A DNA stretch of 64,000 nt, from positions 1-64,000 of IMG/VR virus record IMGVR_UViG_3300025437_000011; one strand, written 5' to 3'. The stretch's first letter is position 1. Every line of letters starts with the position of its first letter. Below the pieces are notes generated by a model, which was not told where the DNA came from, searched no databases, and worked only from the letters and a program-made list of their open reading frames with translations. The position numbers and the translations under genes were made by a program. The stretch comes from a virus. This document shows, in pieces, positions 5,193 through 38,710 of this stretch.

Positions 5193-6608
5193 ATGGCACA
5201 AAGTTTAATTAACAAAACACAGTTAGCTCCAAATATATCCGATCTTGTTAGCGGTTATGGGCAAAACTTTTTTTACCCATTACTTTCTAATCCAAGTGGA
5301 TATGTAACCTCATCATCTTTGAGTAGTACGGGAGTGTTCGCAACTACCGGTCAGTTAAGCGGTTACTATCCGAGAAGCAATCCTAGTGGGTATATTACCG
5401 GAAATTTATCTTTATATACACCACTGGCATCTTTTAATTCTTTAAGTGGTTCTTTCGCCTATTTAAGTGGATATGTTATAAATAACAGTCTTGTCACTAC
5501 TTTATATTTAAGTTCGCAAAATTATGCTTCAGCAAGTTCACTTTCTGCTTTAAGCTCTTCTTTAAATAATTCGTATTCTGCATTAGCCTTAAATGTTGCT
5601 TCTACTGGTTCAACTTTAAGTAATCAAATATTATCTTTAAGCGGAACGCTGACTGGATCAATTTATTCGACCAGTGGTGCCCTATCTGGGTCGATTAATT
5701 CTCTAAGCGGAACTCTAACATCTACCTACGCGACCATTACAAATCTTGCTTCAACCGGATCTACGCTCACAAGTAATCTAGCGACGACTGGTTCAACACT
5801 CGCCGGGTCAATTAATTCTCTAAGCGGAACACTGACTAGTAATTATGCGACCAATGCTTCTGTAACTAGTATTGTCAACAGTGCAGTTGCAGTAACAGTT
5901 GTTTTAACTACTGGAGATCAGTTTATTAGTGGTTCGAAAACCTTTACAACTGGAGTTACAATTACTGGCAATGTTAATACATTACTAAACGTAACTGGAT
6001 TATATTCAGGTTATCAGCAAATTAATATTCAAAATTTTTCTAATTCGCAAGGCGCTAGTTCTGATTTTGTAGCTACCGCTGATTTCGGAAATCAAAATTC
6101 AGGATATGTGGATCTGGGAATCAATAGCTCAAAATACACTGGAGCATATGTGGGATATACTGGAGATGCATATCTGTACTCGCTTGCAAATGATTTTTAT
6201 ATTGGTAATGCAAATCCGAATGCAAAATTATATTTATTTGCAGGAAATACTCCATACTCTGGAAACCAAGCTGGTCTTACAGTTTTTAATAATAATTTTG
6301 GTATTAATAATTCTAACCCTACCTTTAATTTAGATGTTAGTGGAAATACTCGTTTTTCTGGAAATATAAATGTAAGTGGAACTGGTATTTTTGCTAAAAA
6401 TATAAATGTAAGTGGAACTGGTATTTTCACTTATGACTTAAATGTCGGTGGAAGTGGTAATTTTTCTAGTGGTGTTTTTTCTAAGGGTAGTCCGGTTATT
6501 ACGGGCAATTCAACGGTCACCTCTATTATAGGGATGGGACTAAGCGCATATAATGCATTAGGTGCCCAGATTAATCCTGCTACTCTTTATATTATAACGG
6601 GGGCTTAA
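5193..6608 (+). CDS. Fibre-like virion protein with Ser/Thr/Gly-rich repeats
   Basis: SLSGTLT/ASTGSTL repeats, TTGDQFISGSKTF fibre motif, GINNSNPTFNLDVSG beta-repeat, C-terminal YNAL...PATLYII motif. Confidence 0.65.
   Translation: MAQSLINKTQLAPNISDLVSGYGQNFFYPLLSNPSGYVTSSSLSSTGVFATTGQLSGYYPRSNPSGYITGNLSLYTPLASFNSLSGSFAYLSGYVINNSLVTTLYLSSQNYASASSLSALSSSLNNSYSALALNVASTGSTLSNQILSLSGTLTGSIYSTSGALSGSINSLSGTLTSTYATITNLASTGSTLTSNLATTGSTLAGSINSLSGTLTSNYATNASVTSIVNSAVAVTVVLTTGDQFISGSKTFTTGVTITGNVNTLLNVTGLYSGYQQINIQNFSNSQGASSDFVATADFGNQNSGYVDLGINSSKYTGAYVGYTGDAYLYSLANDFYIGNANPNAKLYLFAGNTPYSGNQAGLTVFNNNFGINNSNPTFNLDVSGNTRFSGNINVSGTGIFAKNINVSGTGIFTYDLNVGGSGNFSSGVFSKGSPVITGNSTVTSIIGMGLSAYNALGAQINPATLYIITGA
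5688..5830 (+). repeat. Direct repeat gggtc(g/a)attaattctctaagcggaac, two copies 117 bp apart
   Basis: Copies at 5688-5713 and 5805-5830, both encoding GSINSLSGT. Confidence 0.8.
6362..6427 (+). repeat. Tandem duplication with 36-bp period (NINVSGTGIF x2)
   Basis: aaatataaatgtaagtggaactggtatttt at 6362-6391 and 6398-6427. Confidence 0.9.
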
Positions 6609-6609
6609 C

Positions 6610-7524: not shown

Positions 7525-7553
7525 CAATTATTAATTAATTTTTAATTAATTTG

Positions 7554-7559
7554 GTGTAA
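7554..7559 (+). promoter_or_regulatory. GTGTAA candidate late-promoter element upstream of lysis cassette
   Basis: GTGTAAatagtat, 8 nt before ATG 7568. Confidence 0.6.
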
Positions 7560-7567
7560 ATAGTATC

Positions 7568-8173: not shown

Positions 8174-8179
8174 AATATT

Positions 8180-8644
8180 ATGTGGCAGCAAATAATAGAT
8201 GTCGCTAAAACTGCACACGCTTTTTTAACTAACGGCGAGGCGCCTCCAAATACCCCAGATTATTTAAAACGGCAAATGGAAGATACGAACCATTTGGCTT
8301 CAAAGAAGTTTTTCATAATAATGACTTCTCTTCTGATTATAGTTACTATGTTTTTTATTGCCGTTGCAATACTTTTTTTTATTCCAAAAGATCATGATAT
8401 TGTTATCACAACTTATGCGGCAATATTTAGTAAAATTATGGAACAGATTGCCCTAGTTATTTCTGTTTATTTGGGCGCACAGGGTCTGGTAGATTTAAAA
8501 TACAATTCTTCTTCAAGTGTTGGTGTTCAGGGTATTGCCGAATCTTCTAATGCTAATGAAAATAAAAATGTTAATTTAGATGAAAGAATTTTATCTAATA
8601 ATGCAAAAGAAAATGATTATAATATACAGGAGACCGCATTATGA
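8180..8644 (+). CDS. Putative holin (two TM helices)
   Basis: SKKFFII...TM1 and IALVISVYLGAQGLVD TM2; overlaps endolysin start (ATGA). Confidence 0.65.
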   Translation: MWQQIIDVAKTAHAFLTNGEAPPNTPDYLKRQMEDTNHLASKKFFIIMTSLLIIVTMFFIAVAILFFIPKDHDIVITTYAAIFSKIMEQIALVISVYLGAQGLVDLKYNSSSSVGVQGIAESSNANENKNVNLDERILSNNAKENDYNIQETAL

Positions 8645-11330: not shown

Positions 11331-11906
11331 ATGCCAAACCTAAAACCATTCAGAGATTACAACGAACACGATGTAATCAATCTATTCACGGTAACGGGCC
11401 AGTCCTTCCTATCGAAGGGCACATTCGTTACTGCCGCTTCAAGTGGTGTTAACCTAAGAGATGACGAGACTGTTAACAATCTCTCCATCTATGGTAACTC
11501 CGTTTCCGCCCTATTCACTCCAGCTTGGTCACTAGCTGTTGCCCCTTCTGGTGCTACAAGGAACCAAGTTATTGGTGCGACTCTAAAGGATTTCCGCACA
11601 ACGGATGAAAACGGTGAAGTTCTACTTTTCCACCCTCGCAAGGCTGCTGAGATGGATGTGATCATCAGTGGACAGGCAATGCCTGTTGTCACAAAGGGTC
11701 TATTCCTTTACAGTGGTATCAGTACTGGTACTTATGGTAACCCAAGCTTCGGCTCTGGTTTCGCCACCGCTGATGCTAATGACGGATCAATCAAGGTTGC
11801 TCCTTACTACAACACAGGCACAAGCAGTATTGCAAGTAACGTTCTAGGTAAGTTTCTAGGCCCTATCAACCAAGACGGCTTCGCCCTAATCAAGATCGAG
11901 CTATAA
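11331..11906 (+). CDS. Capsid decoration/cement protein
   Basis: Between scaffold and major capsid gene; shares the capsid-type codon usage; ends LGKFLG...ALIKIEL. Confidence 0.6.
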   Translation: MPNLKPFRDYNEHDVINLFTVTGQSFLSKGTFVTAASSGVNLRDDETVNNLSIYGNSVSALFTPAWSLAVAPSGATRNQVIGATLKDFRTTDENGEVLLFHPRKAAEMDVIISGQAMPVVTKGLFLYSGISTGTYGNPSFGSGFATADANDGSIKVAPYYNTGTSSIASNVLGKFLGPINQDGFALIKIEL

Positions 11907-11934: not shown

Positions 11935-13101
11935 ATGAAAATTCAATTTGAAAAAAACCCAGAGCAGATCGAGCTAATCAAGGCACTTGCATCTGAAAAC
12001 AAAACAGTTGCAATGCAGGCTCAGGAAGCTTTCGCGGCTTTCATTAGTGACGTAGTTCTTCAAGTTCTACTACAGGCTGGTACAGCTAGCATGATCTATC
12101 GTGACATCGAGTTCGATGAGGACGATTCTCCATCAATCCCTCTTGACCTATACTATGGACAAGGTGAGGGCTCAATCAGTGTCTGGAGTCAGACAGTTGG
12201 TGGTGGCCTACCTACATCCCTACAACAGGGTCTACAAGAAATGAAGATCAACACCTATCGTCTAGATAGTGCGATCTCCATGGAAAAACGCTATGTCCGC
12301 CGCGCACGTCTTGACGTTGTTGCTGCTGGTCTAGAGCGTATGGCTAACGAACTTCTTGTTAAGCAAGAGCGTAATGCATGGGCAGTTATCCTAAAGGCAG
12401 CTGCCGAAGCAACAACTGCAACAAACGTAATTGGTGGAACAGTCCAGAATCACGTTATCCGATCAGTAAGTGACGGTGTCTTTGATATTGACACATTAAA
12501 CAAGCTATGGACAACAGTTCGTAGAATCAATGCCGCTTACACAGGTGGTACTCCTCTAAATCTACAGGCTCGTGGTCTAACCGATCTATTCGTAAGTCCT
12601 GAGGTTAAGGAGCAGATTCGCGGATTTGCTTATCAGCCAATGAACACACGTGGAGCTAACGGAGTAGCTGGAACAAACACAAGTGGTGTTCTAGGCCTTC
12701 CTAACTCCGTGCGCGAAGAGATCTTCCGTGGTAGTGGAACACAGGAAATCTTCGGTGTAACAATCCATGAGCTACTTGAGCTTGGTCTAAATAGAAAGTA
12801 CAATACTCTATTCGGAACCTTTGCACAAGCTAAAGGTCTAACCTATCAGTCTGCTGATTCGGGTCACACAAATAGTTCGACTTGGAATGGAACAGGTAGT
12901 GATGAATTAATCATCGGTATCGACGCAACACGTAACGCTTTCCTTCGCCCAGTTGCGATCCAGAGCGAGAGTCGTGGACAGGTCAAGGTTCTTCCTGATG
13001 ACCAGTTCCTAGCACGTAGTCAGAAGGTTGGCTTCTACAGTTATGTGGAAGAGGGCCGTGTCTGCTCCGATGCTCGTGGTGTTGTAGGCGTTCTTCTATA
13101 A
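11935..13101 (+). CDS. Major capsid protein
   Basis: 388 aa after protease/decoration genes, strongest codon bias in the window, followed by an intrinsic terminator. Confidence 0.8.
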   Translation: MKIQFEKNPEQIELIKALASENKTVAMQAQEAFAAFISDVVLQVLLQAGTASMIYRDIEFDEDDSPSIPLDLYYGQGEGSISVWSQTVGGGLPTSLQQGLQEMKINTYRLDSAISMEKRYVRRARLDVVAAGLERMANELLVKQERNAWAVILKAAAEATTATNVIGGTVQNHVIRSVSDGVFDIDTLNKLWTTVRRINAAYTGGTPLNLQARGLTDLFVSPEVKEQIRGFAYQPMNTRGANGVAGTNTSGVLGLPNSVREEIFRGSGTQEIFGVTIHELLELGLNRKYNTLFGTFAQAKGLTYQSADSGHTNSSTWNGTGSDELIIGIDATRNAFLRPVAIQSESRGQVKVLPDDQFLARSQKVGFYSYVEEGRVCSDARGVVGVLL

Positions 13102-15166: not shown

Positions 15167-16039
15167 ATGAATGTTAATACGTATATACCTAGTTTGATGT
15201 CAAGTTTTTATTTATGGCTAGACCATGAAATACTTCAGCGTGGGACTGCTTTTACGGTATATAGCGGAGCCATGTATTCTGGCGCTGATTATAATTATGC
15301 TCAATATACAACTTTCACATCTCCATTTAGACAATGGGTTTCTGATAGTAGTGTGACTGGTGCAGTAATTCCTAGCGGAGTATATGTTGGCGGAAATTTT
15401 ATTCCTAGGGGGGTAAGCGGTTTGGCGCTTAATTTTAATAAGGCTGAAGCTATTTTTAGTGGATCAGTAAATCCAAAAACAACAAATGTTAGCGCGCAAT
15501 ATTCGGTAAAGGATTTTAATATTTACTATACGGATGAGCGCGAAGAGAATTTACTTTTTGAAAATAGGGCATATTTAAAACCAAAATTTAATAGTATAAC
15601 CGGAGGACTTTTGCCAGATGATCAGCCGTATCCTTGTATTTATATAAAAAATACATCTTATGAAAATAGACCGTTCACGTTTGGTGGACAAGATCAAACA
15701 AGGACTACTATTCGTTGTATTATTATTTCTGATAGTATTTATTTGCTTGACGGTGCAATTTCTATTATGGCAGATACTGTAAGAAAAGTATTTCCAATTA
15801 TTCCAAACTCTGGAATTCCATATAATTATTTTGGAGATTTTAAATCTGGTGCATCTTATAATTATACTGGACTAGCTTATTATTGTCAACAAACATTTCC
15901 TAATAATGATGTTTATATTGATCGCGTTACGGTTTCTAGATTAGATGAAATTAGAAACAAACACATTAACCTAAAGACGGTAGCTGCGATGGTAGACTTT
16001 GATTTATGGCAGGGTAGATACCCAAGACAATATAACTAA
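15167..16039 (+). CDS. Putative tail terminator protein
   Basis: Immediately before tail tube; YPCIYI motif common in tail terminators. Confidence 0.5.
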   Translation: MNVNTYIPSLMSSFYLWLDHEILQRGTAFTVYSGAMYSGADYNYAQYTTFTSPFRQWVSDSSVTGAVIPSGVYVGGNFIPRGVSGLALNFNKAEAIFSGSVNPKTTNVSAQYSVKDFNIYYTDEREENLLFENRAYLKPKFNSITGGLLPDDQPYPCIYIKNTSYENRPFTFGGQDQTRTTIRCIIISDSIYLLDGAISIMADTVRKVFPIIPNSGIPYNYFGDFKSGASYNYTGLAYYCQQTFPNNDVYIDRVTVSRLDEIRNKHINLKTVAAMVDFDLWQGRYPRQYN

Positions 16040-22400: not shown

Positions 22401-25400
22401 CGCGATTCGCCGCAAGGGTTATGCCGCTGGATATATTCCTAACTTCGCAGATGACAGTTCTGGATCTAATTCTTCATCTTATGCAGCGGTCGGTATTGAG
22501 CTTTCTGGACTTGCTACCATGTTGGCGTTTGGTAGTAATGGGATTAGAGAAGAGTATCGAAAACAAATTCAGACTATTTCTGCAGCAAATAAAAATATTT
22601 CCGAAGGATCTTTGAAGCTTAAGGCTGGACTTGCCGCAGGAGGATCTAATATTGCTCTGGCCGTTTCTACTCTGGGGCCAATTATTACTAGCACGATTGC
22701 TAATAATATAGACCAATCTACAAAGTCTGGAAGAGGTTCTGCATCAGCCACTAAGGGTATCGGAGATATTTTAAGTTATGGCGGAACTGGTGCAATGATT
22801 GGAACAGCTATTGAGCCGGTCATAGGAACTGGAATTGGTGCTGTTGCTGGCGTGTTAGTTGGTTTAACTACAACAATTATGGATGTTGGTAATCAACTAA
22901 AAACTGATATACCAGAATTAGAGGCAGCATTTAAAAAAGCTAGTGAAAACCAAACTCAAATACAGCAGCAGTCTACTAATATAATCCAAACTGCAACTGA
23001 ATTAAAAGAATTAACAGAAGCTAATAAGCCTGAAAATGCTGAGAAAATAATTGCAACAAAAGCAAAACTAACCGAACAGATTTCTTCATATACTGGATCA
23101 GCAGATAGGGCCACATTAATTAGTGATTCCGTAGGTAATATAGAAAAATTAGTAGCAGATTTTGCAAAAGATAGAAGAAATTCAGCAGACCAAACCGCCA
23201 AAGCTAGAGCAGAGGCGGACGTGGCTGCCGAATTAAATAAGGGAAAATTTTCTGGGCCATTTGGTGGTGGTGTTGGCATTACTAATTTTGAAAAAACTGC
23301 AGCGCTTGGGAATAGGGAAGCTATGGCTGGGGTTAATATGACTGTAGAAAATATACAAAAAAGACTAACCATTCTTGATTCTGCCAGTCGTGCAAATGAA
23401 AATAGCTCGCTAAGTGTTAAAGCTGTAGCCGAAATTGCTGGAATAAGTGGAGTAAATTTTGAAAATTTTAAAGATCAGTATGAAACTCAGGCCCAACAAA
23501 GAGCCGCGCTTGCCCTATTAGTTCGGGATGAGATTAACCAAAAGCAAGAAGATCTGAATAGCGCCCAACAATTAAATAAACAACAGCAGGAAGCTGCGGA
23601 CGCGGCTGCAGCTGCGGCTGCTGCCCAGCGTCAAATTGTTGAAAAAGATCGTAATTATGTAGCGGCTTTAGAAGAGGCGATAAAAGCTGCGAAGTTTAAT
23701 ATAAGCTTTGGTCAAGAGCGTAGGGTGGCTAGGGCAAACCAGATTGCCGAAATGGGATTTGGTGGGGCGGGACTACAAGATCAAATTGCCAATATTTTTA
23801 GTGGAACCATTGGTAAGGCACGGGCAGAGGCGCCGTTAGATTTGGAGCAAGAAATTTTAAAGTCCATAGGAAAAGAGGGTAATCCAGCTAACTTAACAGA
23901 TGAGAAAATGAGGGCAATTATGTCCGAGGCGCTTAAACCGGAAAATACGAAAGGAGGCGTATATAATGCAAATGCTATAGCTAATAGTATTGGCGCGTCT
24001 GAGGAATTTTTAGCGGTGCATTCTGAAGATAAAGATAAGGGTCTTAAAGCAATATCAGATTTACAAAAAGCCATTGAAGAGGGTAAGTCAAAACTATATG
24101 ATGCACAGCGCGAAGCCACTACTCTATCTGCTCAAAAAATTGATGAATTAATAAGAGTTAATTTCGCTGGTCTAGACAGAGTTGGTGGAGGAATCGAGTC
24201 TGTACTGAGTTATAAAAACCCATCACAAACAGGAGATGATGTTGCCAAAGCAGTTAGGGACTATAATTTAATTTCGAATTCAAAAACTGCAAATTCCGCA
24301 GACATATCTAAAGCAATTTTAGATGTGATGGATAGCGTTTCAAAATTGACTGGTGGCGCGTCAGTAATGACTACAAGTGACCAACTATTTAAAGATTTAA
24401 CAGTAGGAATTAAAGACTCATTATCAAAGAGTTATGATATTGGAGAATCAAAGTTAATGAGTATGAAGGGTGGTGAAGGTATAGTTCGAGCTATTGAGAA
24501 AGATTTATTAGAGCGAACTGGGGAAGTTGATAGAAATAAGGCATTGGCTGATATTGCCGAATATAGTGAAGCAAAAAAACATAATGTTGAAGATACTACG
24601 GGTTTAGGATCAAGACTTTATAATCAAGTTCTTAACGAACAATTAGAAAAATTTGAAAGACTTTCTTCGAGAAATAATGCGCCAGAAATGACTTCTGATA
24701 CAAAGGCTGCAATAGAATTAGCAATTAAAAGTGGCGCGACAACGGGAGCAAAAGATGCAACTGCTGCGCAGATGATAGTTAGTAACGCACAGGATGCGAC
24801 GGCATTTAAGGATATTAATCAATTTCATAATGACTATAATACTAAGACAGATAAGCAAATAGATTTACTAAGAAAGATAGCAATCAATACTCAAGAATCG
24901 GCTGCAGCTGGTAAACCTAGTACAACAGTAACCGTTCCAAGCTCGCATGCTGCTGGATATGTTCCTAATTTTGTTAACTCTACCATTGAAGAATCTTTGG
25001 CTCGTTCATTGGGCGCTAAAAATCCGCGCGCACATTATGGAAGAGGTCGAATAGGTGGAAAGCGTTTCTTAATGAATAGCGAGGAGATGGAGATTCCAAA
25101 TTTTGCAGGGGGGCCTGATTCGGCTGTTATTCCGATGTATGCAGATGGAAACCTTCCGCTCGAAATGATAGATTTAAGTAAAGTAAAAACTAAATTTGGT
25201 ACTTATTATAATCCAAAAAAGTCTGGCTTGGGAACTCGTGGAAAATTTAGTGGATTAAATTTTGGAACAGAAGAAATGTCGGAGTATGGCTATAATACTA
25301 CATATACCAAAGATATAAAAATAAATAAAGAGTTATTTAGTTCAAATTTAAGCTCCGATAAATTTTCTTTACTTGAAAAGTATACACCAGCAGAATTGCG

Positions 25401-27869: not shown

Positions 27870-29450
27870 ATGGATTTCTCTAATGCAACATTATTAGCTT
27901 CTACTTGGAAGAATGATTTCCTTGGAGATACCCTGCGTTTTAATTCAACTCAAACGCTTAATATTGAGGGTTTTGTTCTTAATTTAAGGAATTCTGATGG
28001 TGTGAGCGGTATCCTAACTGGTGTGGCCGCCTTGGAATCTGGCGCTAGAAACTGGGACGCTATAACAATTAATGGTTATACTTTTGGTTCTGGTATAGTT
28101 GAAAGTTTTACTTTCTCAGAGGGTCGGGACGTTCAAACGAAAACTTATAATGCCACAATTCAAATCCCAAGAAGTGGAGACTTTAGTTCATTAACTGGAC
28201 TGTCAACTTATTCTGGATTATCCTATTCTAATTTACAATACTTACATGGTTTTACCGAATCTAGTAGTTTAGATCGCAATATTCAAAGAGAAACTTATTC
28301 ACAGAATATCAAGTTTAATATTAAAGCGCCATATAATTTAAGTGGCGTTGCAGTTGCAAAAACAGTCGCCCAGAACTTTTTTCAAAATAACTATTTAAAC
28401 TCGTTTATAGGAACACTCTATTCTGGCACGGCAATCAAGAATTTCTATACTGAAAGTTATGACTCTATAAATAATAACTTTGATTTTGCCAGAACATTTG
28501 AGATAAGTACCGCTGAAAATCCATCCTATTCATTGTGGAGGTCTACTTCTTTAGATTTTGACTTGGCTGGTATATCAAAAGTGACCGAAAAGGCAGAATA
28601 TTTAGGTCATACAACAAATCCATTTACTACTGTTTCGGCACAAGCTTATCAGGATATTGGTAATGCGTATTCTAGGTGTAACTCATTTTTTAGTGCTTAT
28701 AAACAAAATGGCGAGGCATCTTTATTATCGCAACCCATAATTAAGTCTATTACTACAAATCCTTTTGCCGCTACCCTTAATTATACCGTAGTCTTTTCAA
28801 ATGCTTTTAATATTCAATCCAATGGTTTTTGGGATTATACTATAGATATTACACAAACCCAAGGTGGAGTATATTTAGCGGAAGAAAAGGGTATAATAAT
28901 TGGATTTGGGCATATTATTTTTGAAAAATACAATAACGCTGTAAATTTGTGGGGCACGGTTCAGGGCGGCGTTGCGAGCAGATTAGCAACTAGCTCTTAC
29001 TATAACTCTCATCCTGGTGGATATAATCCACCATCAATAGCTATTAAATTGGCCGCTTCGTCTACTATATTAGATCAGGTTGAGGGTAAAATAGATTATA
29101 CTTTTAAGTATTCAAATCAAGATTCTATTTTGGCCACGACAAATATAAAAAAAGCAACGGTACACATCTCTCAGGAATCAAATAGACATTTGGCCACCTC
29201 TTTTAACATTTCTAACTATAAGGAAATCGTTCAGGTTCAGCCAAACTTGTTGCCAAATGTGCTTTCTTATGATATTAAGTTAAATGGTCAGGCCGCTACA
29301 GATATAAATACCTATCTGACTACGGCAAAGACATACCTTCCTGCTGGTACTAGTAATTCTAAATTTTTAACGTCAGTTGATTATAATTATAATCAATTTG
29401 AGAGAAGTTTTGGTTTAAATGCTACAATTACAACATTACCATCTAGTTAA
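27870..29450 (+). CDS. Putative tail tip/baseplate protein
   Basis: First gene after tape measure; beta-rich, T/S/Y-rich. Confidence 0.55.
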   Translation: MDFSNATLLASTWKNDFLGDTLRFNSTQTLNIEGFVLNLRNSDGVSGILTGVAALESGARNWDAITINGYTFGSGIVESFTFSEGRDVQTKTYNATIQIPRSGDFSSLTGLSTYSGLSYSNLQYLHGFTESSSLDRNIQRETYSQNIKFNIKAPYNLSGVAVAKTVAQNFFQNNYLNSFIGTLYSGTAIKNFYTESYDSINNNFDFARTFEISTAENPSYSLWRSTSLDFDLAGISKVTEKAEYLGHTTNPFTTVSAQAYQDIGNAYSRCNSFFSAYKQNGEASLLSQPIIKSITTNPFAATLNYTVVFSNAFNIQSNGFWDYTIDITQTQGGVYLAEEKGIIIGFGHIIFEKYNNAVNLWGTVQGGVASRLATSSYYNSHPGGYNPPSIAIKLAASSTILDQVEGKIDYTFKYSNQDSILATTNIKKATVHISQESNRHLATSFNISNYKEIVQVQPNLLPNVLSYDIKLNGQAATDINTYLTTAKTYLPAGTSNSKFLTSVDYNYNQFERSFGLNATITTLPSS

Positions 29451-29475: not shown

Positions 29476-31128
29476 ATGGTAAAGGTTCTATATAATGGAG
29501 TTGACGTATTTGGCACCAATGGTGCCCCAACGCCGTTTGTCTCAATTTCTGACCAAATGATAAACTATGGGCAGAGGTGGGGTGTTGCTAAATCAATTAC
29601 GCTCAATGGAATGATTACTGGCGTGGGGTGCCTCGGTAATACAAATAGTTATCAAGACCTGTTAGCCAAGCAGAGTGGCCTTTATAATTCCTTTTCTCAG
29701 GATTTCAAAACATTAGTTATTACCGATTCTTCTACAGTGGCTTTTAGCGGTAATTATGTTCGTGTAAATTCAATTGATTTTGATCGTTCCGCCTATTTTA
29801 GAACTCTTAATTTCAAGGTGGGTTTGATTTATTATCCGCCAGAGCTATTTTCCGGAACTTTCGGAGTAACTTCTCCAACTGCTAGTATTAAATATACCGA
29901 ACAGCAGGATAGGACTGTAAATATTACACAGTCAATTTCCGCAAAGGGCTTCAACACTTCTTCTACTAGTAATAATTCCTTAAGCAATGCTGTAGCATAT
30001 GTTCAGTCCCTAACTGGAACTAGTGCTTTAATTCAACCGACGTTTATTCCTATTTTTGCTAACTCGCTAAATCCTAATGGAATATCTATTACTGGAATCT
30101 ATCCCAAGAAAATTTCGGAAAACATTAATCGAATAGAGGGGACGTATTCTGTTAATATTGATTATTCAATAAGAGAAACCGCGCAAACTTCTACTGTTTT
30201 AAACTACACTACGGATATTAGCTATGATGAAACTAAGGGTTTTTATACTGCTTCGCTAAAGGGATCTTTAAAGGGAACTCGTAATCAACAAATATCAGAT
30301 GTTAGGAATGAGTTTAATACTTATTTTAACGCTTATAATTTAGTTTCTTATATTTTTAATACCTCTATCAATCCTCCGTCAAATGTGGTTTTAAATCCTA
30401 ATGTTGAGTCATATAATATAAATGAAATACAGGAAACTAATACAATTGATTTTTCATATAATTATACTACAGACCCACAGACTGTAAAATTTGACTATAC
30501 TGTTGATTTAAATGGTGATGATTTAAGGGATATGATCACGGTTGAGTTTAATGGTACACTGACAGCAAAGGGGCCGCAAAATTTAAGGCTACCCCAATTA
30601 GAGGCGAGTTTAGCCAATTTAAATGTTGTAACTTTATGTCAAGACTACTATTTAAACAATGCAAAAACCTCTACGGCCCCATTTAACCCAATTCTTAAAA
30701 AATATGCGGTTAAAAGAAATTTAACTAATTCAAATAATTCTTTTGTAGTTACGGCAAGTTTTGATAATAGTCCAATTCCCGTTAACCCTGCTTTCAAGTC
30801 TTTTGTTTGGTCTATTGCGATAAGTCCATCTATAAATACATACATACCAATACAGTATCTAAATGGAGACAATGCGGCATTTAATATGAATTATTATAAA
30901 AGAGGAAAGATAGCGATACAAGGTACGGCACTTTTACCCGATAATTCGGATTATAGTTCATTAGTAAGAACTGAAGCTTTAAATATTTTAAATCAATATG
31001 CGTCTAGTTTTACAAAAAGAGTAAGAGTTGAGGATAAGGTGCATAGAGAACAATTTGCAGAAGAAAATGGTTATGGGTATTCATTTTCTATAGCTGATTC
31101 ATGTGAAACCCCAATTTTTTCAATCTAA
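29476..31128 (+). CDS. Putative tail tip/baseplate protein
   Basis: Similar size and strand-helix-strand periodicity to the preceding gene; position. Confidence 0.55.
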   Translation: MVKVLYNGVDVFGTNGAPTPFVSISDQMINYGQRWGVAKSITLNGMITGVGCLGNTNSYQDLLAKQSGLYNSFSQDFKTLVITDSSTVAFSGNYVRVNSIDFDRSAYFRTLNFKVGLIYYPPELFSGTFGVTSPTASIKYTEQQDRTVNITQSISAKGFNTSSTSNNSLSNAVAYVQSLTGTSALIQPTFIPIFANSLNPNGISITGIYPKKISENINRIEGTYSVNIDYSIRETAQTSTVLNYTTDISYDETKGFYTASLKGSLKGTRNQQISDVRNEFNTYFNAYNLVSYIFNTSINPPSNVVLNPNVESYNINEIQETNTIDFSYNYTTDPQTVKFDYTVDLNGDDLRDMITVEFNGTLTAKGPQNLRLPQLEASLANLNVVTLCQDYYLNNAKTSTAPFNPILKKYAVKRNLTNSNNSFVVTASFDNSPIPVNPAFKSFVWSIAISPSINTYIPIQYLNGDNAAFNMNYYKRGKIAIQGTALLPDNSDYSSLVRTEALNILNQYASSFTKRVRVEDKVHREQFAEENGYGYSFSIADSCETPIFSI

Positions 31129-33674
31129 TGGCCGAAAATTCAGTTCAATATTATATTAATAATTATAGTTTAGTTCCAAGCGGAGCTATGGGTTTTTATT
31201 ATGATTATAACGAATCGGGAAGTTGGTATATTCCAAATATAACAGGAGTTAATGGATTGAACGGATATGTTGTTGGGGGCCCTGCATCATTTATTAATGA
31301 TAACTTGCTGGCTTATTGGAGTTTTAATAGTACTGATTCTTCTCAGTATATACCAGATTATGGGCCATCTGGTTATACTTTATTAACAAATCAGAATGAT
31401 GGTTTTCAATATATACAGGACACTCCGGGTGTATCCACTCTTGGTCATTTTTTGAATGCCATTAGTTTATCGGCGGGAACTAATGAGGGATATTTTATTA
31501 CTATAGGAAGTTTTCCGTTATTAACTAGTTTTACTATTTCTTGTTGGGTAAAATTAGATGGCAATTATAATGCATATAATTTAATTGCCTGTCACTGGGA
31601 TGGTACTGACAATAATTGGAATTTTATTTTTATAATAGATAATAATAATCATTTAACTCTAACAGTTGGGCAGGGAGGTAGCATAGACAATCAGGTTGGC
31701 ACGACAGCAACGTCTGTGGATTTCTCTGATGGACAGTGGCATTATTGCGTTGCAAAGTCAGATGGATCTACTTATATTAGTGTTCAGGTTGATAATGGTC
31801 AAGTATTTACGTCTGCACTGTCTAGTACTTTAGCTGGTGGAGATAATAGTGTTCCTTTTCAAATAGGAAGAAATATCAGACAGGGATTAGTTGCTGCAGG
31901 CATATCTTTGGATGACTTATCTATATGGAATAGCCCCTTATCTACATCGCAGTTAACTACCATAAGTAGTACGCAACTTTTAAATTTAATATCAGCAAAT
32001 CCTGCACCCGCATCATTTTGGCAGAGTTCTGGTAGTGGCTACTATGGCCCATGTTATTCATATACTCAAACAAGTGGTTCTTTGAATTTAACTACTGGAA
32101 CTTATGCGATGGTTTATAATAAAACTGTTCCTAATAGTGCAACTTTACTTTCAACAATATACACAGGACAAGATCAGTCAAATAATATATATTATGGTGG
32201 GTATGAGTTTGGAGTTACAGCAAATAATTATTTGTATTTTGAATATTATTCAATAAATGGCCCACAGGTTTTTAGTTCCAACATTCCACTTTCGGATAAG
32301 GCGGCGGTTTTTTTAACATTAGATACGGATAAGGTTTCTTTTGGTAACTATGATTATTTTACATCGCAATTAAATAGTCAAAACATTCCAATTAGTACTT
32401 CTTATTTATTTGCTCCAACTGGGGTTTATGTGGGATATAATCCGAATGCTACGGGTATTTATTGTCATAATAAACCTTTTACTGGATACATAGATGAAGT
32501 GCTATTTTCCACACAACCACTTCAAAGCAGTTCCCTGTCCACGTTATTTAGTGGCTTTGTTAATAATTACGTACCGTCTACTTCTACAAATTTATCTGGA
32601 ATGGTAACTGGGATAACAGGTAGTGGAACTTATTATTCTGGATACTATACTGCAATAACTGGCTATAGTTCAAATCCAACTGGGCTTGTGTATGATTGGT
32701 TTGGAAATACTTATACTGGATATCAGGTAACACCATTGACTGGAACTGTTTCTGGTAGCGGCACTGTTCTTTTAACTGGTTCTTTTTATGTAACTACTGG
32801 GCAAAATAGCACACCAGACATTATAACATTAAATACTGGTTTTAGGGCAACTTTTGGTAAGACCTCAATTAATTTAATTTATCCAATTATTAGTGGTGAT
32901 ATGATTGATGTTAATTTGCCCTCTTTTAATTACCCTGCTGTTTACGAAAATAATTTATCGTTAAGTTATAACAAAATAAACCAGTCTTTTTATAATTCAT
33001 ATTTGCAAAATAATAATTTTAATAATTACGTTGTATTTCATGACGGACTAGCTTTGAATTCTGGTTTATATAATAATTTTGGCGGCGTGTATAATCCTCA
33101 GACTCAAATTTTAAATGATTATTTTGTAGATACTAATAATGAGATTATTTTAGGTACTGGTTTTAATGTAGATATTAATACATTAGATGTTATCATGGCC
33201 GATACTTTTACTGGAATTTATAATTCTGGAATGTATATTTCGAATTTTAACTTAACAGCTTTGGCGGCATCTTCTGGTGTTTATGTTTTACCTTGGAATG
33301 CTTATTTATATAATATATATTATAATGGACAAAAGTTATTAAGTGGAAATAATTCTAATATTAATATATTAACACACTATGGCATTACAGGAAATGGGTC
33401 TTCTATTTATTTTCAAACTGGATCTATTTTTGATAATAATCAAGGCCAGCTATTTGCGCTCCCCCGAAATTTCCAAATTGAAATAACTGGAAATGCACAA
33501 ACATTCTATAATTTGCCACAATTTTATAATGGTTATTCTGAAGTATATCGGAATGGTGAGCGCCTATTTGTAGAAGAAGACTATTTAGAATTAGCAACTT
33601 ATGATATAAATTCTGGGCAGGGTATTTTTGATACTCACCCGTATTTATTATATAATAATAACGATTTGTTTTAA
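31128..33674 (+). CDS. Tail protein with LamG/concanavalin A-like domains
   Basis: LLAYWSF, FTISCWVK, DGQWHY, LDDLSIWNSPLS (LamG) plus a second FTGYIDEV motif. Confidence 0.75.
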   Translation: MAENSVQYYINNYSLVPSGAMGFYYDYNESGSWYIPNITGVNGLNGYVVGGPASFINDNLLAYWSFNSTDSSQYIPDYGPSGYTLLTNQNDGFQYIQDTPGVSTLGHFLNAISLSAGTNEGYFITIGSFPLLTSFTISCWVKLDGNYNAYNLIACHWDGTDNNWNFIFIIDNNNHLTLTVGQGGSIDNQVGTTATSVDFSDGQWHYCVAKSDGSTYISVQVDNGQVFTSALSSTLAGGDNSVPFQIGRNIRQGLVAAGISLDDLSIWNSPLSTSQLTTISSTQLLNLISANPAPASFWQSSGSGYYGPCYSYTQTSGSLNLTTGTYAMVYNKTVPNSATLLSTIYTGQDQSNNIYYGGYEFGVTANNYLYFEYYSINGPQVFSSNIPLSDKAAVFLTLDTDKVSFGNYDYFTSQLNSQNIPISTSYLFAPTGVYVGYNPNATGIYCHNKPFTGYIDEVLFSTQPLQSSSLSTLFSGFVNNYVPSTSTNLSGMVTGITGSGTYYSGYYTAITGYSSNPTGLVYDWFGNTYTGYQVTPLTGTVSGSGTVLLTGSFYVTTGQNSTPDIITLNTGFRATFGKTSINLIYPIISGDMIDVNLPSFNYPAVYENNLSLSYNKINQSFYNSYLQNNNFNNYVVFHDGLALNSGLYNNFGGVYNPQTQILNDYFVDTNNEIILGTGFNVDINTLDVIMADTFTGIYNSGMYISNFNLTALAASSGVYVLPWNAYLYNIYYNGQKLLSGNNSNINILTHYGITGNGSSIYFQTGSIFDNNQGQLFALPRNFQIEITGNAQTFYNLPQFYNGYSEVYRNGERLFVEEDYLELATYDINSGQGIFDTHPYLLYNNNDLF

Positions 33675-33677: not shown

Positions 33678-36371
33678 ATGACCACAAGGAATTTAATAAC
33701 TGCGCCACAAATTAGAGGAGATAATTTCTTTGGAGGTTTGCCATATGGAGTCAGTTGGGATTTTAAAGATGGGTCTACTCCATCAACATTAAAGGTTCAA
33801 TTGGTGAATGAGTTGGGGCAGTATACCGTTACCTCGAATGATTTGTCTTATTTAAAGTCTTCTACTGTAACTATTGGAAACTTGGTTTTTAGGGGTTATT
33901 TGACTGATTTTTCTATAGAAAAAACTCCAGAACAAAAAATTTTAACCCTAGAATACACTGATCTTAGTGCGGACTTGGAGCGTTGGTATGTTGGTTTGTA
34001 TAATAGATATGGATACGCCACAAATAAAGACGCAAGATTAATTATCGTTGGAAAGATCTACCATCCTTGCGATCAAGCTTTAAGCTCTACCGCTGGTGCA
34101 AATAATCATTCATCTTTGGATGTTTGTGACCCCTGCCCATTTATGCCTTATGATAAGTATGCAAATTCTTGTGGTGGAACAGCTACTTCTCCGGCCGCTT
34201 TAATAGATTTTCAAATCTTTGAAGTATGGTATACTTTTGATGATTTATATAATGAGATATCAAAATATTTTTCGGTTAGTGGTGGGGATAAAATTACTAA
34301 AAATAGCAACAATTATCCGTTCAGGGCTCAACATACGGGTAGCTTAAAAAGGGTTCTAGATGCTTGGTGTGCAGACTTGGGTTTAGTATATTATTGGGAT
34401 CCATTTGTTAATAAATTATTTTTCATAGATCGGTCAAAACCTATTAATATACCACCTGCTAATATTGTCGGGGCCGACCCTTTAATTGTTGACTTTACAT
34501 ATGGGGCAAGTAAAAAAAATACCTTCTCTAGGGGATTTCTTGGATATTTTTCAAAAGATGGGTCTATACATGATTATAATTGCACTATTGATCCTACACA
34601 GAGTTTTATTGATACTGCGCCCGTAACTTTTGAGGATTTAATTGGTGTAGATGATGATGGGGATTATAGTGTGGGAACTTATTCTTATTTACAAAAATTA
34701 CAAATACAAACTGCTTTGGCCTATTACAGTAGGGCATTAAGAGATTCATTTTTATGGTTCGGATATTATGAAATTATTACTAAGGATGGGGCGAAATCAG
34801 CTATAGGTCAGTCATTAATTGAGTTTGGTAATATGGAAATATTAGATGTATATTCTCAAGATGACTCTTCTCCTGAAAAGTTTAAAAATATAAACGAGAA
34901 TTTGCCATCACAAAAAAAACAAGATCTAGCGGGATTTAGCTATTATTATATAGTTGCATCTTATGATGATGATCTTGCTAGTAGTCAGTTTACAAATGTA
35001 GAGGATAGAGCAAATAATTTATTAGGTAAATATTGGTACTCTAGGTTTAATACTCCTATACCAGGTGGAACAAATGCGAATACAAATGTAAATGTAAATA
35101 CTGCAGATGGGGGAAGTGGAAATTGGTATATAAGTGGTACTGATTTATCTACATTACCTATTTTTAAATTTGGATTTGCTGCTGATTCAAATATTGGTAA
35201 CTTGGTAACTGCTTCTAATACAGATGATGAAAATAATAGTACTTTAATAGATTCTGGAGTTTCCGGTGGTGGAAATTATGTTACTGGAGAGCAAGATAAA
35301 GTTGTGACTTCTTTTGTTCTTGCAACAAGGGAGCCGCAATGGTGGCCTAGTAAAGACAAGATACAAGATTATAATTCTCTATTTAAATGGTACGATGACT
35401 TATTGCCAGAGCTTTTTGATGATGGTCGTCCAGAGGTTTTATTTAATATTTACCCTGAAGCGTTAAAAGATCCAACTATAAAGTTATTTATTGCCAAGGA
35501 ATATCCTGCATTAAGATCTTCTGATAAATATCAGATTATAATACAACAGGGGTCTAACGATAATGAACCTACATCTCAATCTCCCAAAAATAAAATTGAA
35601 CAAGATGTTTTAGGTAATCCTGTTAAATTATTTGAGGGTATGTGGGGTTTAAGATCTAATAAAACGTGGATATTAAGTCTACCCGGTATGTCTATAACTC
35701 TTCCCGTTGGGGCGTGGAAGTCAAATGGCGCAAGTCAAAATTCTAGTTCAGATTTTGTTAGCGGACAAACATCTAGTTTGGGAAAAACTTCGATTATTGA
35801 TCCAGCTGCTCCAGCTTATACCATTGCACTAAATGTTTCAGAAAGTTTTAAAAAAGTATTACCAAAAGTGGAACATGTTTATCAGCAGTTAGTATCAAGT
35901 ATAGATGTAGCTAAAATTGATTATCACTTTAAGGATATTAGAGAAAATAATTTAAGTTTAGTGCAGGGGATTAATAGGTCTTGTATTCCTACTGGAGGTG
36001 ATATTGATAATTATCTAAAGCAAATATCTCAGAATTCTTTTTATTCTATGCCAACGGCACAGCAGAGAATTTCTTATAAAATAGCTGGAGTGAATCCCAC
36101 TACTAGCTATTCAATTAGTCAGGGACTATCTTCTATTCAGATATCTTTAACAAATAATGGATTCTATACTTCATATACATTAGAAGATAAGATCATTCGT
36201 GCGCCAAGTGATGATTATGTTTTGCAGTCATTAATCGCAAGAACCATAGATCGTGGCACCCTGTCTTCCAGTCAGCAAAATGGCCCAACAGCAAAGATGA
36301 TAGGAAACTCATACAATAATAGTCAGGGTAGTTTTAATAACACTCCAAATCCGGGACAAATTAAGCAATAA
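33678..36371 (+). CDS. Putative baseplate hub/tail tip protein
   Basis: PSTLKVQLV, FRGYL..FSI and LKRVLDAWCADLG..YYW resemble hub-protein patterns. Confidence 0.55.
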   Translation: MTTRNLITAPQIRGDNFFGGLPYGVSWDFKDGSTPSTLKVQLVNELGQYTVTSNDLSYLKSSTVTIGNLVFRGYLTDFSIEKTPEQKILTLEYTDLSADLERWYVGLYNRYGYATNKDARLIIVGKIYHPCDQALSSTAGANNHSSLDVCDPCPFMPYDKYANSCGGTATSPAALIDFQIFEVWYTFDDLYNEISKYFSVSGGDKITKNSNNYPFRAQHTGSLKRVLDAWCADLGLVYYWDPFVNKLFFIDRSKPINIPPANIVGADPLIVDFTYGASKKNTFSRGFLGYFSKDGSIHDYNCTIDPTQSFIDTAPVTFEDLIGVDDDGDYSVGTYSYLQKLQIQTALAYYSRALRDSFLWFGYYEIITKDGAKSAIGQSLIEFGNMEILDVYSQDDSSPEKFKNINENLPSQKKQDLAGFSYYYIVASYDDDLASSQFTNVEDRANNLLGKYWYSRFNTPIPGGTNANTNVNVNTADGGSGNWYISGTDLSTLPIFKFGFAADSNIGNLVTASNTDDENNSTLIDSGVSGGGNYVTGEQDKVVTSFVLATREPQWWPSKDKIQDYNSLFKWYDDLLPELFDDGRPEVLFNIYPEALKDPTIKLFIAKEYPALRSSDKYQIIIQQGSNDNEPTSQSPKNKIEQDVLGNPVKLFEGMWGLRSNKTWILSLPGMSITLPVGAWKSNGASQNSSSDFVSGQTSSLGKTSIIDPAAPAYTIALNVSESFKKVLPKVEHVYQQLVSSIDVAKIDYHFKDIRENNLSLVQGINRSCIPTGGDIDNYLKQISQNSFYSMPTAQQRISYKIAGVNPTTSYSISQGLSSIQISLTNNGFYTSYTLEDKIIRAPSDDYVLQSLIARTIDRGTLSSSQQNGPTAKMIGNSYNNSQGSFNNTPNPGQIKQ

Positions 36372-38710
36372 TGATTAATATAACTGGCATAAGATATCGC
36401 AATATTTACCCCCAATCGGGAGTAAGTTGGTCTACTTATGTTCGCCCAAATCAAACATCCGGACACTGTCAGTTTTTATTTTCGGGAAGTAGTGGTAATT
36501 GTGTTGTATTTGATTTATACAATGGAAAAATATTATCTTCAGATAAAAGATTGCTGGGCTCGTATAAGAGTGGGGATAATTTGTTTTTTTCGGGAAATTT
36601 ATCTCCTAGCGGCGCTGATTTATATTTAAATTCTATTCCTTTGTATTTGGGGTTAAATATTGCTAATGTAAACCAATTATTTTCTGGAGTGTATTTTAAA
36701 AATTTAGGGCAAAGTTCTATAGGTTTTAATAACCTTACAATTTATGGCGACAATATACCTCCATATTTTTATCAGCCTTTTTATACTTTTTATAAAGGTC
36801 AGGCCACAATTCCAATTCAGCTTGTTAATAGTGGTAATTATCCTATTACTGTCTATTCTGGATATTCTTCTTACAGCGCATTTCCTATAACTGGTACTAA
36901 TCCATTGGTTAATATTCCTAGTGGCGGAACTGGTTATATTTACGCATCAAATACTAATTCAATAGATCTTTCCTCTAAAACAAAATCTATTTCAATATCC
37001 TTATATACAAATATAGGTGTTATTCCTATGTCTGTAAATATTTCCGGATTGTTTACTAATACATTATCTCTGATTAACTTGGGGCCAACTAGTAATATTA
37101 TAAAAAATAATGTGCCAAATGTTTATAGCTTGACATATAGAAATACAGCGCAAACCCCCGTTAGTGTTTCTTTGGCATATGTCAGTGGATATACTGGAAA
37201 TGTATATAGTCCAATTCAAGTTGTTCAAAAATATTCGCAAATAGTAACTGGTTTAATTTCTGGCAGTGGAATTTTTTCTAAATTTTTACAGAATCCATCT
37301 ACTGGAACTGGAACTCCTACTTATTATGTACAGCAGTACAATACAGTTTTAGGCAGGAATGAAACTACTACCGCATCTGGGATTTTATCTACTGCTTCTT
37401 TGTATGCGCCAGATAGTTCAGTTAGTCAAAATATATCTTATACTGCAAGTGGATTGGGAAGTATTTGGTCTGGAAAGAGTTGTATTATTAACGGATCTGG
37501 AATTGCTTATGGTATAATGTGTTCTGGATATGTTGATTATATAACTGGCGGAATATTAACGGGAAATGTACCACTGGGAACACCAATGTCCCAAGTTTAT
37601 TTTAATAATTTATTTACTGGCTATTTAACGGGAGCGGGAGCAAGTTCTTCTTTTGTTTATACTCCTAATAATTCTTTAGTTTTAAATTCTGCATTATTAC
37701 CATCACAATATTCAATCAATTATTTGAGTGCTATTGGTTCGGGGTATGTAACTGGAACTCCAACTGGTAGTGCGTTAGTACAATCAAATGTAACTGGTTA
37801 TTTTTATAATCCAGTAACTACTGGGTTATATTTTAATAAAATTTTAAGCGGAATTGCAACTGGAAATAATGGATTTATAACCACGACTGTAACGGGTAGT
37901 GTTTATTTAGTAGATCCTATTGTTGTGTCAAGCTATTCTTCTATTATAGATTATGCAGCTTTAACATATATAAATAGTGATATATTTTTTACTGGAAATA
38001 TGGCATCTATTGCGCCGAGTAATATTTCTAATGTTTTAATTTATAGCAACCCTACTGGATTAATAATTGGGACTTCTTCTTATGGTTATTTTAACGGTGC
38101 GGGAACTTTAATTGGAAGTCAAACGGGAACAATTGTTTATGCTATTAATAATGATGGTAATGTTTATAATTTTACTGGTGCAAATCAGTTTAGTGTGAAT
38201 ACTTTAACTGGTAGCTATAATGTTTCTGTCGCGGCAACTGGAACTGGATCATGGTTGGCAACGGGAAATTTAACTGGACAACTTTACGCATATCAGGGTA
38301 AAAGGTCTTTTACTGGGGTTTGGACGTTTGCTACTGGTAAAAATATATCTAAATTGAATAACGTTCCGACTTCTGGCACAAGCGGTAATTTGTATGCTCA
38401 ATATTTATCAAGTAGTATAGGTATAAATTCAAATTATGTTTCGCAATTAAGTATTGGTTATAATGATTTATTCTCAATTACCAATAACTCTCCATATATA
38501 GACTCTGCTATTCTTAATGTATCTGGAAAAAACTTTATAGCTCAAGGATATGACAGTGGCGTGTCTTTATATATACAAAATAATACAGGCATATCAAGTT
38601 CTATTAATCCTGCTTTAAATTGTCCACCTGGTTATTATTGGAATAATTGTTGGAATTACTGTATACAATGCACGGGGGCTTGGGATATGTCTGCATGTAA
38701 TTGTTTCTAA
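36371..38710 (+). CDS. Putative tail fibre/spike protein, very TG/SG-rich, with Cys-rich C-terminus
   Basis: Composition and position at end of tail module. Confidence 0.55.
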   Translation: MINITGIRYRNIYPQSGVSWSTYVRPNQTSGHCQFLFSGSSGNCVVFDLYNGKILSSDKRLLGSYKSGDNLFFSGNLSPSGADLYLNSIPLYLGLNIANVNQLFSGVYFKNLGQSSIGFNNLTIYGDNIPPYFYQPFYTFYKGQATIPIQLVNSGNYPITVYSGYSSYSAFPITGTNPLVNIPSGGTGYIYASNTNSIDLSSKTKSISISLYTNIGVIPMSVNISGLFTNTLSLINLGPTSNIIKNNVPNVYSLTYRNTAQTPVSVSLAYVSGYTGNVYSPIQVVQKYSQIVTGLISGSGIFSKFLQNPSTGTGTPTYYVQQYNTVLGRNETTTASGILSTASLYAPDSSVSQNISYTASGLGSIWSGKSCIINGSGIAYGIMCSGYVDYITGGILTGNVPLGTPMSQVYFNNLFTGYLTGAGASSSFVYTPNNSLVLNSALLPSQYSINYLSAIGSGYVTGTPTGSALVQSNVTGYFYNPVTTGLYFNKILSGIATGNNGFITTTVTGSVYLVDPIVVSSYSSIIDYAALTYINSDIFFTGNMASIAPSNISNVLIYSNPTGLIIGTSSYGYFNGAGTLIGSQTGTIVYAINNDGNVYNFTGANQFSVNTLTGSYNVSVAATGTGSWLATGNLTGQLYAYQGKRSFTGVWTFATGKNISKLNNVPTSGTSGNLYAQYLSSSIGINSNYVSQLSIGYNDLFSITNNSPYIDSAILNVSGKNFIAQGYDSGVSLYIQNNTGISSSINPALNCPPGYYWNNCWNYCIQCTGAWDMSACNCF

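Follow-up and report, generated by a model that had tools for sequence, protein, structure and literature searches.

Glycosylation of virion proteins by phage-encoded enzymes has been described for mycobacteriophages, in which glycans are located at the C-termini of capsid and tail-tube subunits (Freeman et al. 2023, cited in PMC12619734). The present analysis concerns a stretch of 64,000 nucleotides, hereafter the window, which constitutes the first 64 kb of IMG/VR virus record IMGVR_UViG_3300025437_000011, a single contig of 108,475 bp. Fibre-type virion proteins encoded in this window display a marked excess of glycine directly preceded by serine or threonine (the S/T-G dipeptide), and a conserved cassette of glycosyltransferase (GT) genes lies next to the tail-fibre genes. 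The parallel with the mycobacteriophages resides in the phage-encoded glycosyltransferases, which there modify virion proteins. In contrast, the biased proteins of this genome are fibres and its capsid protein carries no excess; the host and the GT families also differ. The glycosylated termini of Che8 follow no clear S/T-G rule.

The bacterial autotransporter heptosyltransferases (BAHT) TibC and AAH, which act on TibA and AIDA-I, provide a second term of comparison. TibC is a GT9-fold enzyme that O-heptosylates serine on the beta-helix protein TibA, with a mapped site at Ser-313 in the sequence NSGG (PMC4358343). Comparison is invited by the GT9-type GT-B enzyme, which in that system carries out hyper-O-glycosylation of serine in the cytoplasm on a surface protein that is repetitive and beta-rich, and by the superposition of the phage GT9 lobe on TibC. 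However, the phage lobe is at least as close to the lipopolysaccharide (LPS) heptosyltransferases 3tov_B and 1psw_A, and the phage enzyme is apparently split over two genes. Moreover, TibC acts on Ser alone, but the phage motif contains Thr as often as Ser.

The gtrABC operon of phage P22 offers a parallel in gene arrangement: GT genes lie directly beside the gene for a receptor-binding protein and converge with it. The gtr products, however, act on the host O-antigen via the membrane proteins GtrA and GtrC, no such partners with multiple transmembrane segments are found here, and the P22 tailspike is devoid of S/T-G bias. Fibritin-type fibres of T4 and collagen-like phage fibres resemble the proteins of the window in consisting of short repeated segments separated by glycine-containing linkers, and G-X-Y runs with Ser or Thr at position Y occur in one relative of this genome (L042) and at the C-terminus of gp22 of the pelagiphage HTVC010P. 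Yet T4 wac, gp12 and gp34-37 show no S/T-G excess, and the fibres of the window are not collagen-like. In the chlorovirus PBCV-1, virus-encoded GDP-mannose 4,6-dehydratase (Gmd) and virus GTs serve virion glycosylation, with N-linked glycans on the major capsid protein. A viral Gmd accompanied by GTs is common to both cases, whereas PBCV-1 is a eukaryotic virus whose glycans are N-linked and are not known to obey an S/T-G rule.

Set against these systems, the bias and the modules that bear it are variants of repetitive phage fibres, and the cassette is a variant of phage auxiliary glycosyltransferases. Judging from the literature searched, neither the bias nor the family of fibre modules nor the split GT9 cassette seems to have been described before. 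The account favoured here, with a probability of about 0.5, is that S/T-Gly is an intrinsic structural signature of modular fibre modules and that the GT cassette acts on something else, or on an acceptor left unspecified.

The Ser/Thr-Gly excess in fibre-type proteins

All open reading frames (ORFs) were translated and, for each protein, the number of glycines preceded by Ser or Thr was compared with 1000 shuffles of the sequence; as a local control, residues were shuffled only inside blocks of 20 or 40. ORFs are named hereafter by their first coordinate (Table 1). The strongest case is the distal tail fibre, ORF 36371, in which 56 of 86 glycines follow Ser or Thr (19.7 expected, z 9.8). The fibre protein encoded directly after the portal gene, ORF 5193, has 38 of 54 (15.4 expected, z 7.1) and the tail fibre or baseplate protein ORF 31128 has 38 of 84 (z 6.2). 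ORF 15167 follows with 10/20 (3.1 expected, z 4.4), and the excess in ORF 11331, 8/19 against 3.4 expected, is marginal (z 2.2-2.9). The hand counts given for four of these proteins in the preliminary description are exact, as is the 3/29 reported there for the DnaB-like ORF 61001-62491, and the enrichment that it had put forward survives correction for both global and local composition. Under block shuffling z is unchanged (7.4, 5.7 and 9.8 for ORFs 5193, 31128 and 36371), and the reverse dipeptide, G-S/T, occurs at expectation in the same three proteins, with 15, 19 and 22 instances versus 38, 38 and 56 for S/T-G. Overall and local composition therefore do not explain the excess. The internal control also holds: in ORF 31128 the LamG-like insert (residues 56-293) has 1 of 22 glycines after Ser or Thr and the remainder of the protein 37 of 62.

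The remaining ORFs of the window are nearly all at an observed/expected ratio (O/E) of about 1. These include S/T-rich tail proteins interspersed with the biased ones (27870-29450, 29476-31128 and 33678-36371; O/E 0.8-1.2), of which the last, the clade-wide 897-aa protein, has an O/E of 0.79 and relatives with z from -3 to 1. The major capsid protein is at 1.0. A 2796-aa ORF in the tail module (19471-27861), probably the tape measure protein, is at 1.09. Beyond the window, a second fibre cluster occupies 84.8-89.3 kb of the genome on the minus strand, and its ORF 87437-88924 has 42 of 55 glycines after Ser or Thr (z 7.7).

Immediately before glycine, Ser (2.2-fold) and Thr (3.0-fold) are the only enriched residues apart from Met (2 cases), all others being at or below expectation. 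The surrounding context is loose, with hydrophobic residues or Pro before the dipeptide and Tyr or hydrophobic residues after it. The codons preceding Gly comprise 53 AGY and 38 TCN codons for Ser and 93 for Thr; as both Ser codon families and Thr codons are used, the signal lies at the protein level and is not a DNA word. A T-GG DNA motif, the hyphen denoting the codon boundary, is excluded because AAT-coded Asn is depleted before Gly. The four fibre genes (ORFs 5193, 31128, 36371 and the external 87437-88924) display a further codon pattern: A-ending Ser and Thr codons are nearly absent before Gly (TCA 2 versus 60 elsewhere, ACA 9 versus 71), and the Gly codon is mostly GGA. This pattern resembles avoidance of A-GG(A), perhaps of Shine-Dalgarno-like words within genes.

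The window has a G+C content of about 35%, and sequence comparison places the phage far from any cultured one. BLAST of the structural region, ORF 36371 and ORF 5193 against cultured phages returned no match at either the DNA or the protein level, in a search whose low-complexity filter may hide fibre matches; the terminase is only ~24% identical to Bacillus and Microcystis phage proteins, and the structural proteins are almost without matches in Pfam and PHROGs. IMG/VR contains 288 relatives of the major capsid protein at 50-86% identity, many of which lie on contigs of 100-170 kb, and the phage is therefore a member of a large clade of uncultured phages. This is a clade of large freshwater phages.

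The bias extends throughout this clade. Of the 1171 ORFs in 80 capsid-anchored loci, 80 exceed a z of 4, and each of these encodes a long protein rich in Ser, Thr and Gly; eight whole relatives carry 4-10 strongly biased ORFs per genome. Orthologues of the window fibres keep z 7-11; those of the two lesser cases are weaker (ORF 11331, z 1-3; ORF 15167, z -1 to 3). In pairwise alignments of homologues of 25-80% identity, conservation of Ser/Thr is 56% inside S/T-G versus 36% elsewhere, and where Gly is kept the residue before it is Ser or Thr in 77% of instances, Asn in 5%, and Asp and Ala in 1.5% each. Alignments of the ORF 36371 family contain many S-G columns without any variation, and sites are kept across homologues of 27-50% identity. 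This conservation implies purifying selection on the dipeptide as a unit and a requirement for the hydroxyl group. The enrichment is of the kind expected of a sequon: z 6-10, hydroxyl-specific and kept in homologues. The S/T-G bias is genuine, is a specific feature of fibre-type proteins of the virion and is maintained by selection.

The dipeptide occurs in several types of repeat. In the relative L076 it bounds a unit of ~29 residues (TGsxLdnkINsLSG...FSG) whose hydrophobic spacing suggests short coiled coils delimited by S/T-G, and segments resembling this unit are present in ORFs 5193 and 87437. In ORF 5193, repeats are also bounded by NPSGY-type motifs, and a BppL_N-like motif lies at residues 235-255. 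Other carriers are NPSG[FY]ITG motifs and the collagen-like (G-S-S)n runs of L042, where S-G is trivial, with 192 site spacings of 3; in the window fibres the spacings are broad and not dominated by 3. Both relatives encode giant fibres: a 1624-aa protein composed of the ~29-residue repeat (L076:15605-20479) and a 1770-aa protein in which long (G-S-S)n runs alternate with a repeated globular domain (L042:100-5412).

No solved structure is related in sequence to ORF 5193 or the ORF 36371 family, and Atlas look-alikes of ORF 5193 gave just weak fibre-type leads. In an AlphaFold2 model, residues 1-129 of ORF 36371 form a ConA-like or galectin-type beta-sandwich, similar to 5mqs_A (Z 16.2, root-mean-square deviation (rmsd) 1.8, 131 aligned residues) and to galectin 3vv1_B (Z 13.5, rmsd 2.5, 120 aligned). 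Within residues 1-227, the only confident region of the model, there are 15 S/T-G sites, of which 7 fall in loops, 6 in strands and 2 at boundaries, as is the case for other glycines. The sandwich (36371-36757) is a possible carbohydrate-binding domain at the end of the fibre expected to join the baseplate.

The sugar genes and an apparently split GT9 enzyme

Four minus-strand genes at 43763-39382 make up a cassette whose order is kept in all nine genomes and which adjoins tail-fibre genes in most of them. The first and last genes encode proteins without family, and Atlas look-alikes of the last gave no lead; between them lie the genes for a 643-aa multidomain glycosyltransferase and a 392-aa protein. 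The latter matches the GT9 family PF01075 at 51 bits (cut-off 22), with residues 30-156 aligned on profile positions 105-239, and its GNDS motif is conserved in 9 homologues. In its structural model, with a predicted local distance difference test (pLDDT) score of 84, residues 2-184 adopt the fold of a GT-B donor lobe whose nearest structural matches are enzymes of family GT9, namely 3tov_B (Z 15.5, rmsd 3.2, 155 aligned), 1psw_A (Z 15.4, rmsd 3.6, 158 aligned), 2h1f_A (Z 14.8, rmsd 3.2, 149 aligned) and TibC, 4rap_A (Z 13.5, rmsd 3.4, 152 aligned). The difference between TibC and the LPS heptosyltransferases amounts to just about 1-2 Z units. A second alpha/beta domain of no assigned kind follows the lobe.

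The N-lobe of GT9 enzymes is absent from the 392-aa protein, which does not conform to a canonical single-chain GT-B. A C-terminal stretch of the 643-aa protein (about 530-643; residues 532-591) weakly resembles that N-lobe (E 0.09-0.24), and in each of the nine genomes the two proteins have ORFs of their own, which lie as much as about 640 nt apart. When this C-terminal part of the 643-aa protein (residues 515-643) was paired with residues 1-190 of its 392-aa neighbour, complex prediction gave a score of 0.86, the best of 3 controls scoring 0.00; runs agree in at least 79% of contacts and the pLDDT of the partner is at least 88. The mark applied is reached by 58 of 80 solved complexes and by 2 of 110 mismatched pairs. 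As solved structures exist for single-chain GT9 enzymes, likeness to these may account for the pass, which is no proof of binding. A GT9-type glycosyltransferase thus appears, from these models, to be split over two adjacent genes (40206-43317, minus strand). The GT9-like gene is present in 12 of the 13 records first tested, the single miss being 58% complete, and in 10 of 10 further records at least 70% complete.

The motif GTGTAA[AT] lies 14-38 nt upstream of many structural gene starts (window positions 3168, 7554, 13583, 19433, 29455 and others) and also precedes the second fibre cluster, beyond the window (genome 89369, minus strand). The GT cassette, in contrast, is not preceded by it and has a divergent intergenic region (44178-44352) of different appearance; a motif common to the cassette and the structural genes was thus not borne out.

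Further downstream, a sugar island that also holds two ORFs without family behaves as a hypervariable glycan island (Table 1). Three is the largest number of hydrophobic segments in any ORF of the genome, and there is no candidate for a flippase, polymerase or ligase; any glycan would therefore be built on a cytoplasmic acceptor. A Pfam scan detected no match to GtrA or GtrC, and no integrase emerged from the Pfam scans of the window. No gene of the ThyA/hydroxymethylase family (PF00303) is found in this genome or in 5 complete relatives, which makes the attachment of sugars to hydroxymethylated DNA bases unlikely; the possibility of DNA glycosylation was set aside on this ground.

Table 1. 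Features of the window discussed in the text (window coordinates).
Feature	Coordinates	Strand	Remarks
Fibre protein, 471 aa	5193..6608	+	directly after portal gene; short repeats bounded by S/T-G
191-aa protein	11331..11906	+	upstream of capsid gene; marginal S/T-G excess
Major capsid protein	11935..13101	+	used as clade marker
290-aa virion-module protein	15167..16039	+	S/T-G excess, z about 4
Tail fibre/baseplate protein, 848 aa	31128..33674	+	biased outside the insert
LamG-like insert in ORF 31128	31293..32006	+	internal negative control
897-aa tail protein	33678..36371	+	kept across clade; unbiased negative control
Distal tail fibre, 779 aa	36371..38710	+	non-repetitive sequence
263-aa protein without family	39382..40173	-	last gene of cassette; core in clade
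392-aa GT9 C-lobe protein	40206..41384	-	donor-binding lobe, GNDS motif
643-aa multidomain glycosyltransferase	41386..43317	-	GT-B domain phrog_2170 at residues 6-435; DUF4214
147-aa protein without family	43320..43763	-	first gene of cassette; core in clade
131-aa protein, three hydrophobic segments	43782..44177	-	weak DUF1360; heads minus-strand block; closer relatives only
362-aa glycosyltransferase	45240..46328	+	phrog_2170, phrog_4356; core in clade
GDP-mannose 4,6-dehydratase (Gmd)	50559..51614	+	core in clade, 54-76% identity
Variable sugar island	53235..59615	+	mostly absent from eight relatives; flanks conserved
HAD phosphatase, small	55111-55473	+	sugar island
PRK/uridine-kinase-like	55460-56146	+	sugar island
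Sugar-1-phosphate nucleotidyltransferase	56192-57031	+	sugar island
WavE-like, GT-like ORF	57489-58265	+	sugar island
Sugar C-methyltransferase, TylC3-type	58371-59615	+	sugar island

Fibres of other phages

Fibre proteins of well-known phages behave differently. An O/E of about 1 is observed for T4 gp12, gp34-37, wac, gp5 and Hoc, the side tail-fibre ORFs of lambda, the tail fibres of S-CBS4, the tailspike (z 0.3) and needle of P22, and the large tail proteins of Flavobacterium phage 11b. The S/T-G bias is not generic to phage fibres.

IMG/VR was scanned for the fibre motif YPxxNPSG[FY]ITG irrespective of capsid or GT. The scan returned 110 stretches, most from this clade, and the 83 motif-bearing ORFs have a median z of 7.2, with 57% of their glycines after Ser or Thr. 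The GT9-like gene is absent from G014 (66 kb), G016 (39 kb) and G018 (35 kb), all complete with terminal repeats, and from G019, which is 72% complete. Fibre segments are the sole part that these four share with the present genome by BLAST, and none contains a homologue of any GT or sugar gene of the window (BLAST, E <= 1e-4). The fibres of G016 are biased nonetheless (25/34, z 5.9; 37/78, z 5.7). The four genomes encode other GTs: Glyco_tranf_2_5 in G016 and DUF4422 in G014, G018 and G019, with Glyco_transf_4 also in G014. DUF4422 is the GT111 galactofuranosyltransferase domain (PMC12269835). G014 (L261-L264) has two P22_portal and two terminase matches, so that this record may represent a concatemer or else a chimera made from two related genomes.

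A moderate excess is seen in HTVC010P, one tail protein of which has 19 S/T-G where 10 are expected (z 3.4), a collagen-like G-x-T tail contributing part of them; this protein shares a domain with collagen-like fibres of the present clade, and no GT family was detected among the 25 largest ORFs of the phage. Fibre segments are common to the clade of large phages, to small P22-portal-type phages (G014, G016, G018 and G019; L261-L270) and to HTVC010P (L293:16666-18012), with 29-76% identity over 21-259 residues. Such sharing suggests that fibre modules are exchanged horizontally between lineages of aquatic phages.

What the dipeptide and the cassette may do

The preliminary description had proposed that five GT-like ORFs and nucleotide-sugar genes build a glycan coat on the S/T-G sites of the particle. 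GT and nucleotide-sugar genes are indeed present, but four GT-like ORFs, not five, are backed by evidence (ORFs 40206, 41386, 45240 and 57489). The cassette and Gmd belong to the core, and the cassette lies beside fibre genes in most relatives; nothing, however, links these GTs to S/T-G sites, and a coat over the particle is not indicated, the capsid protein having no S/T-G excess. It had also suggested that relatives would be informative, and here the answer is divided. Unrelated complete phages lack all the sugar genes of the window and are biased all the same, although other GT families are present in them. Co-occurrence of the bias with the GT set is uninformative inside the clade, because both traits are universal there. 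A second lineage is likewise uniform, with a GT111-like DUF4422 gene and a moderate fibre excess (O/E 1.7-2.0, z 3-4.5) in 6 of 6 portal-defined relatives of G019. Across lineages, the GT9 cassette is missing from the biased G014, G016, G018 and G019, and no common enzyme accompanies the common motif, since the GT families differ: GT9/GT-B here, GT111-like DUF4422 or Glyco_tranf_2_5 there.

According to the favoured account, modular fibre or receptor-binding proteins carrying S/T-G would circulate among aquatic phages. The dipeptide would mark the boundaries of short structural segments and would also decorate some attached beta-sandwich domains; hydroxyl and glycine together may serve, for instance, as a cap or in tight turns that link short segments of coiled coil or beta structure in trimeric fibres. 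The motif would travel with the fibre modules whatever GTs a phage has, and the GT cassette (split GT9, GT-B transferase, second GT, Gmd and variable island) would be a separate glycan module with its acceptor left unspecified. This structural role is inferred; what the data show is the bias, the selection acting on it, its distribution along with fibre modules and the set of GT genes. Several observations fit this account poorly. N-G occurs at 0.5 times expectation although Asn is abundant, so that the usual alternative for a turn or cap goes unused, as would fit hydroxyl-directed modification. The ConA-like domain of ORF 36371 has 9 of 15 glycines after Ser or Thr and the LamG-like insert of ORF 31128, of the same broad fold class, 1 of 22; the fold therefore does not impose the bias, and no known fibre fold explains it. 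The AlphaFold2 model of ORF 36371, built with 9 sequences, has a pLDDT below 50 over residues 228-779. Finally, every strongly biased lineage examined encodes some GT.

The last of these points also belongs to a competing explanation, unlikely but the nearest rival, in which S/T-Gly sites are the acceptors of a phage-encoded cytoplasmic O-glycosylation of fibres. The split GT9, the GT-B transferases or both would add sugar directly to Ser/Thr, and the donors would be Gmd-derived GDP-6-deoxyhexose, ADP-heptose supplied by the host and sugars made by the variable island. The motif is hydroxyl-specific, fold-independent and strongly selected; three GTs and Gmd are core, the four-gene cassette lies beside tail-fibre genes in most relatives, and the genome encodes neither lipid-linked export machinery nor a route to hydroxymethylated DNA bases. 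The GT9 lobe is, in addition, about as close to TibC as to LPS heptosyltransferases, and TibC heptosylates Ser (PMC4358343). Against this stand the lineages that share the motif without sharing a GT family, and the moderate bias of HTVC010P in the absence of a detectable GT. S/T-G is not avoided by non-fibre proteins, whose pooled O/E is 1.04 (1211 ORFs, 9 genomes) versus 1.10-1.31 in control phages, and the capsid protein is without excess. S-CBS4 and P22 encode GTs within or beside their structural genes and yet show no bias, a position next to receptor-binding genes is equally that of the host-directed gtr operon of P22, the cassette lacks the GTGTAA motif seen before many structural genes, and TibC is confined to Ser, its other mapped site being S-A (PMC4358343). 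The fuller version of this proposal, that the freshwater clade, and possibly other aquatic phages with GTs of other families, O-glycosylates head and tail fibres at a minimal Ser/Thr-Gly by means of a phage-encoded two-subunit GT9-type enzyme, with the variable island diversifying the glycan, is a shade more doubtful again. If true, glycosylation of phage virions would gain its first defined sequon and its first example beyond the actinobacteriophages.

It is distinctly less probable that S/T-Gly is selected for some other reason, such as hydroxyl modification by a host enzyme or direct binding to the host surface, while the cassette remodels the host envelope, for instance by adding heptose to the LPS core and thereby blocking superinfection or re-adsorption as P22 gtrABC does. 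The layout of the locus recalls that of P22, in which the gtr operon adjoins and converges on the tailspike gene. GT9 enzymes typically act on the LPS inner core, the island contains a WavE-like LPS gene, the minus-strand block begins with the gene for a small protein that has three hydrophobic segments, and ORF 36371 starts with a lectin-like domain. On the other hand, multi-transmembrane partners of the GtrA/GtrC type were not detected, the Pfam scans of the window contain no integrase, there is no sign of another modification enzyme, and the proposal gives no specific reason why Gly must follow Ser or Thr. A very improbable explanation, already largely refuted, is that the bias arises as an artefact from composition, from local segments rich in S/T/G, from tandem duplication of one unit or from a motif in the DNA. 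Some extreme relatives are indeed trivial collagen-like (G-S-S)n runs, as in L042, and z-scores are somewhat inflated because repeats make the sites non-independent. Nevertheless, z persists under block shuffling, the reverse dipeptide occurs as often as expected, the residues flanking the sites vary and two Ser codon families are used; ORF 36371 is non-repetitive and yet the strongest case, and sites are conserved at 27-50% identity.

If the role of the dipeptide is structural, S/T-Gly provides an easily computed marker for a widespread and undescribed family of modular fibre or receptor-binding proteins in uncultured aquatic phages, and hints at an architecture that has yet to be solved. If it is an acceptor, virion glycosylation would extend to environmental phages, with a testable sequon and a function for the GT and Gmd genes of aquatic phages. 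Either way, the conserved cassette with its apparently split GT9 constitutes a concrete target for biochemistry.

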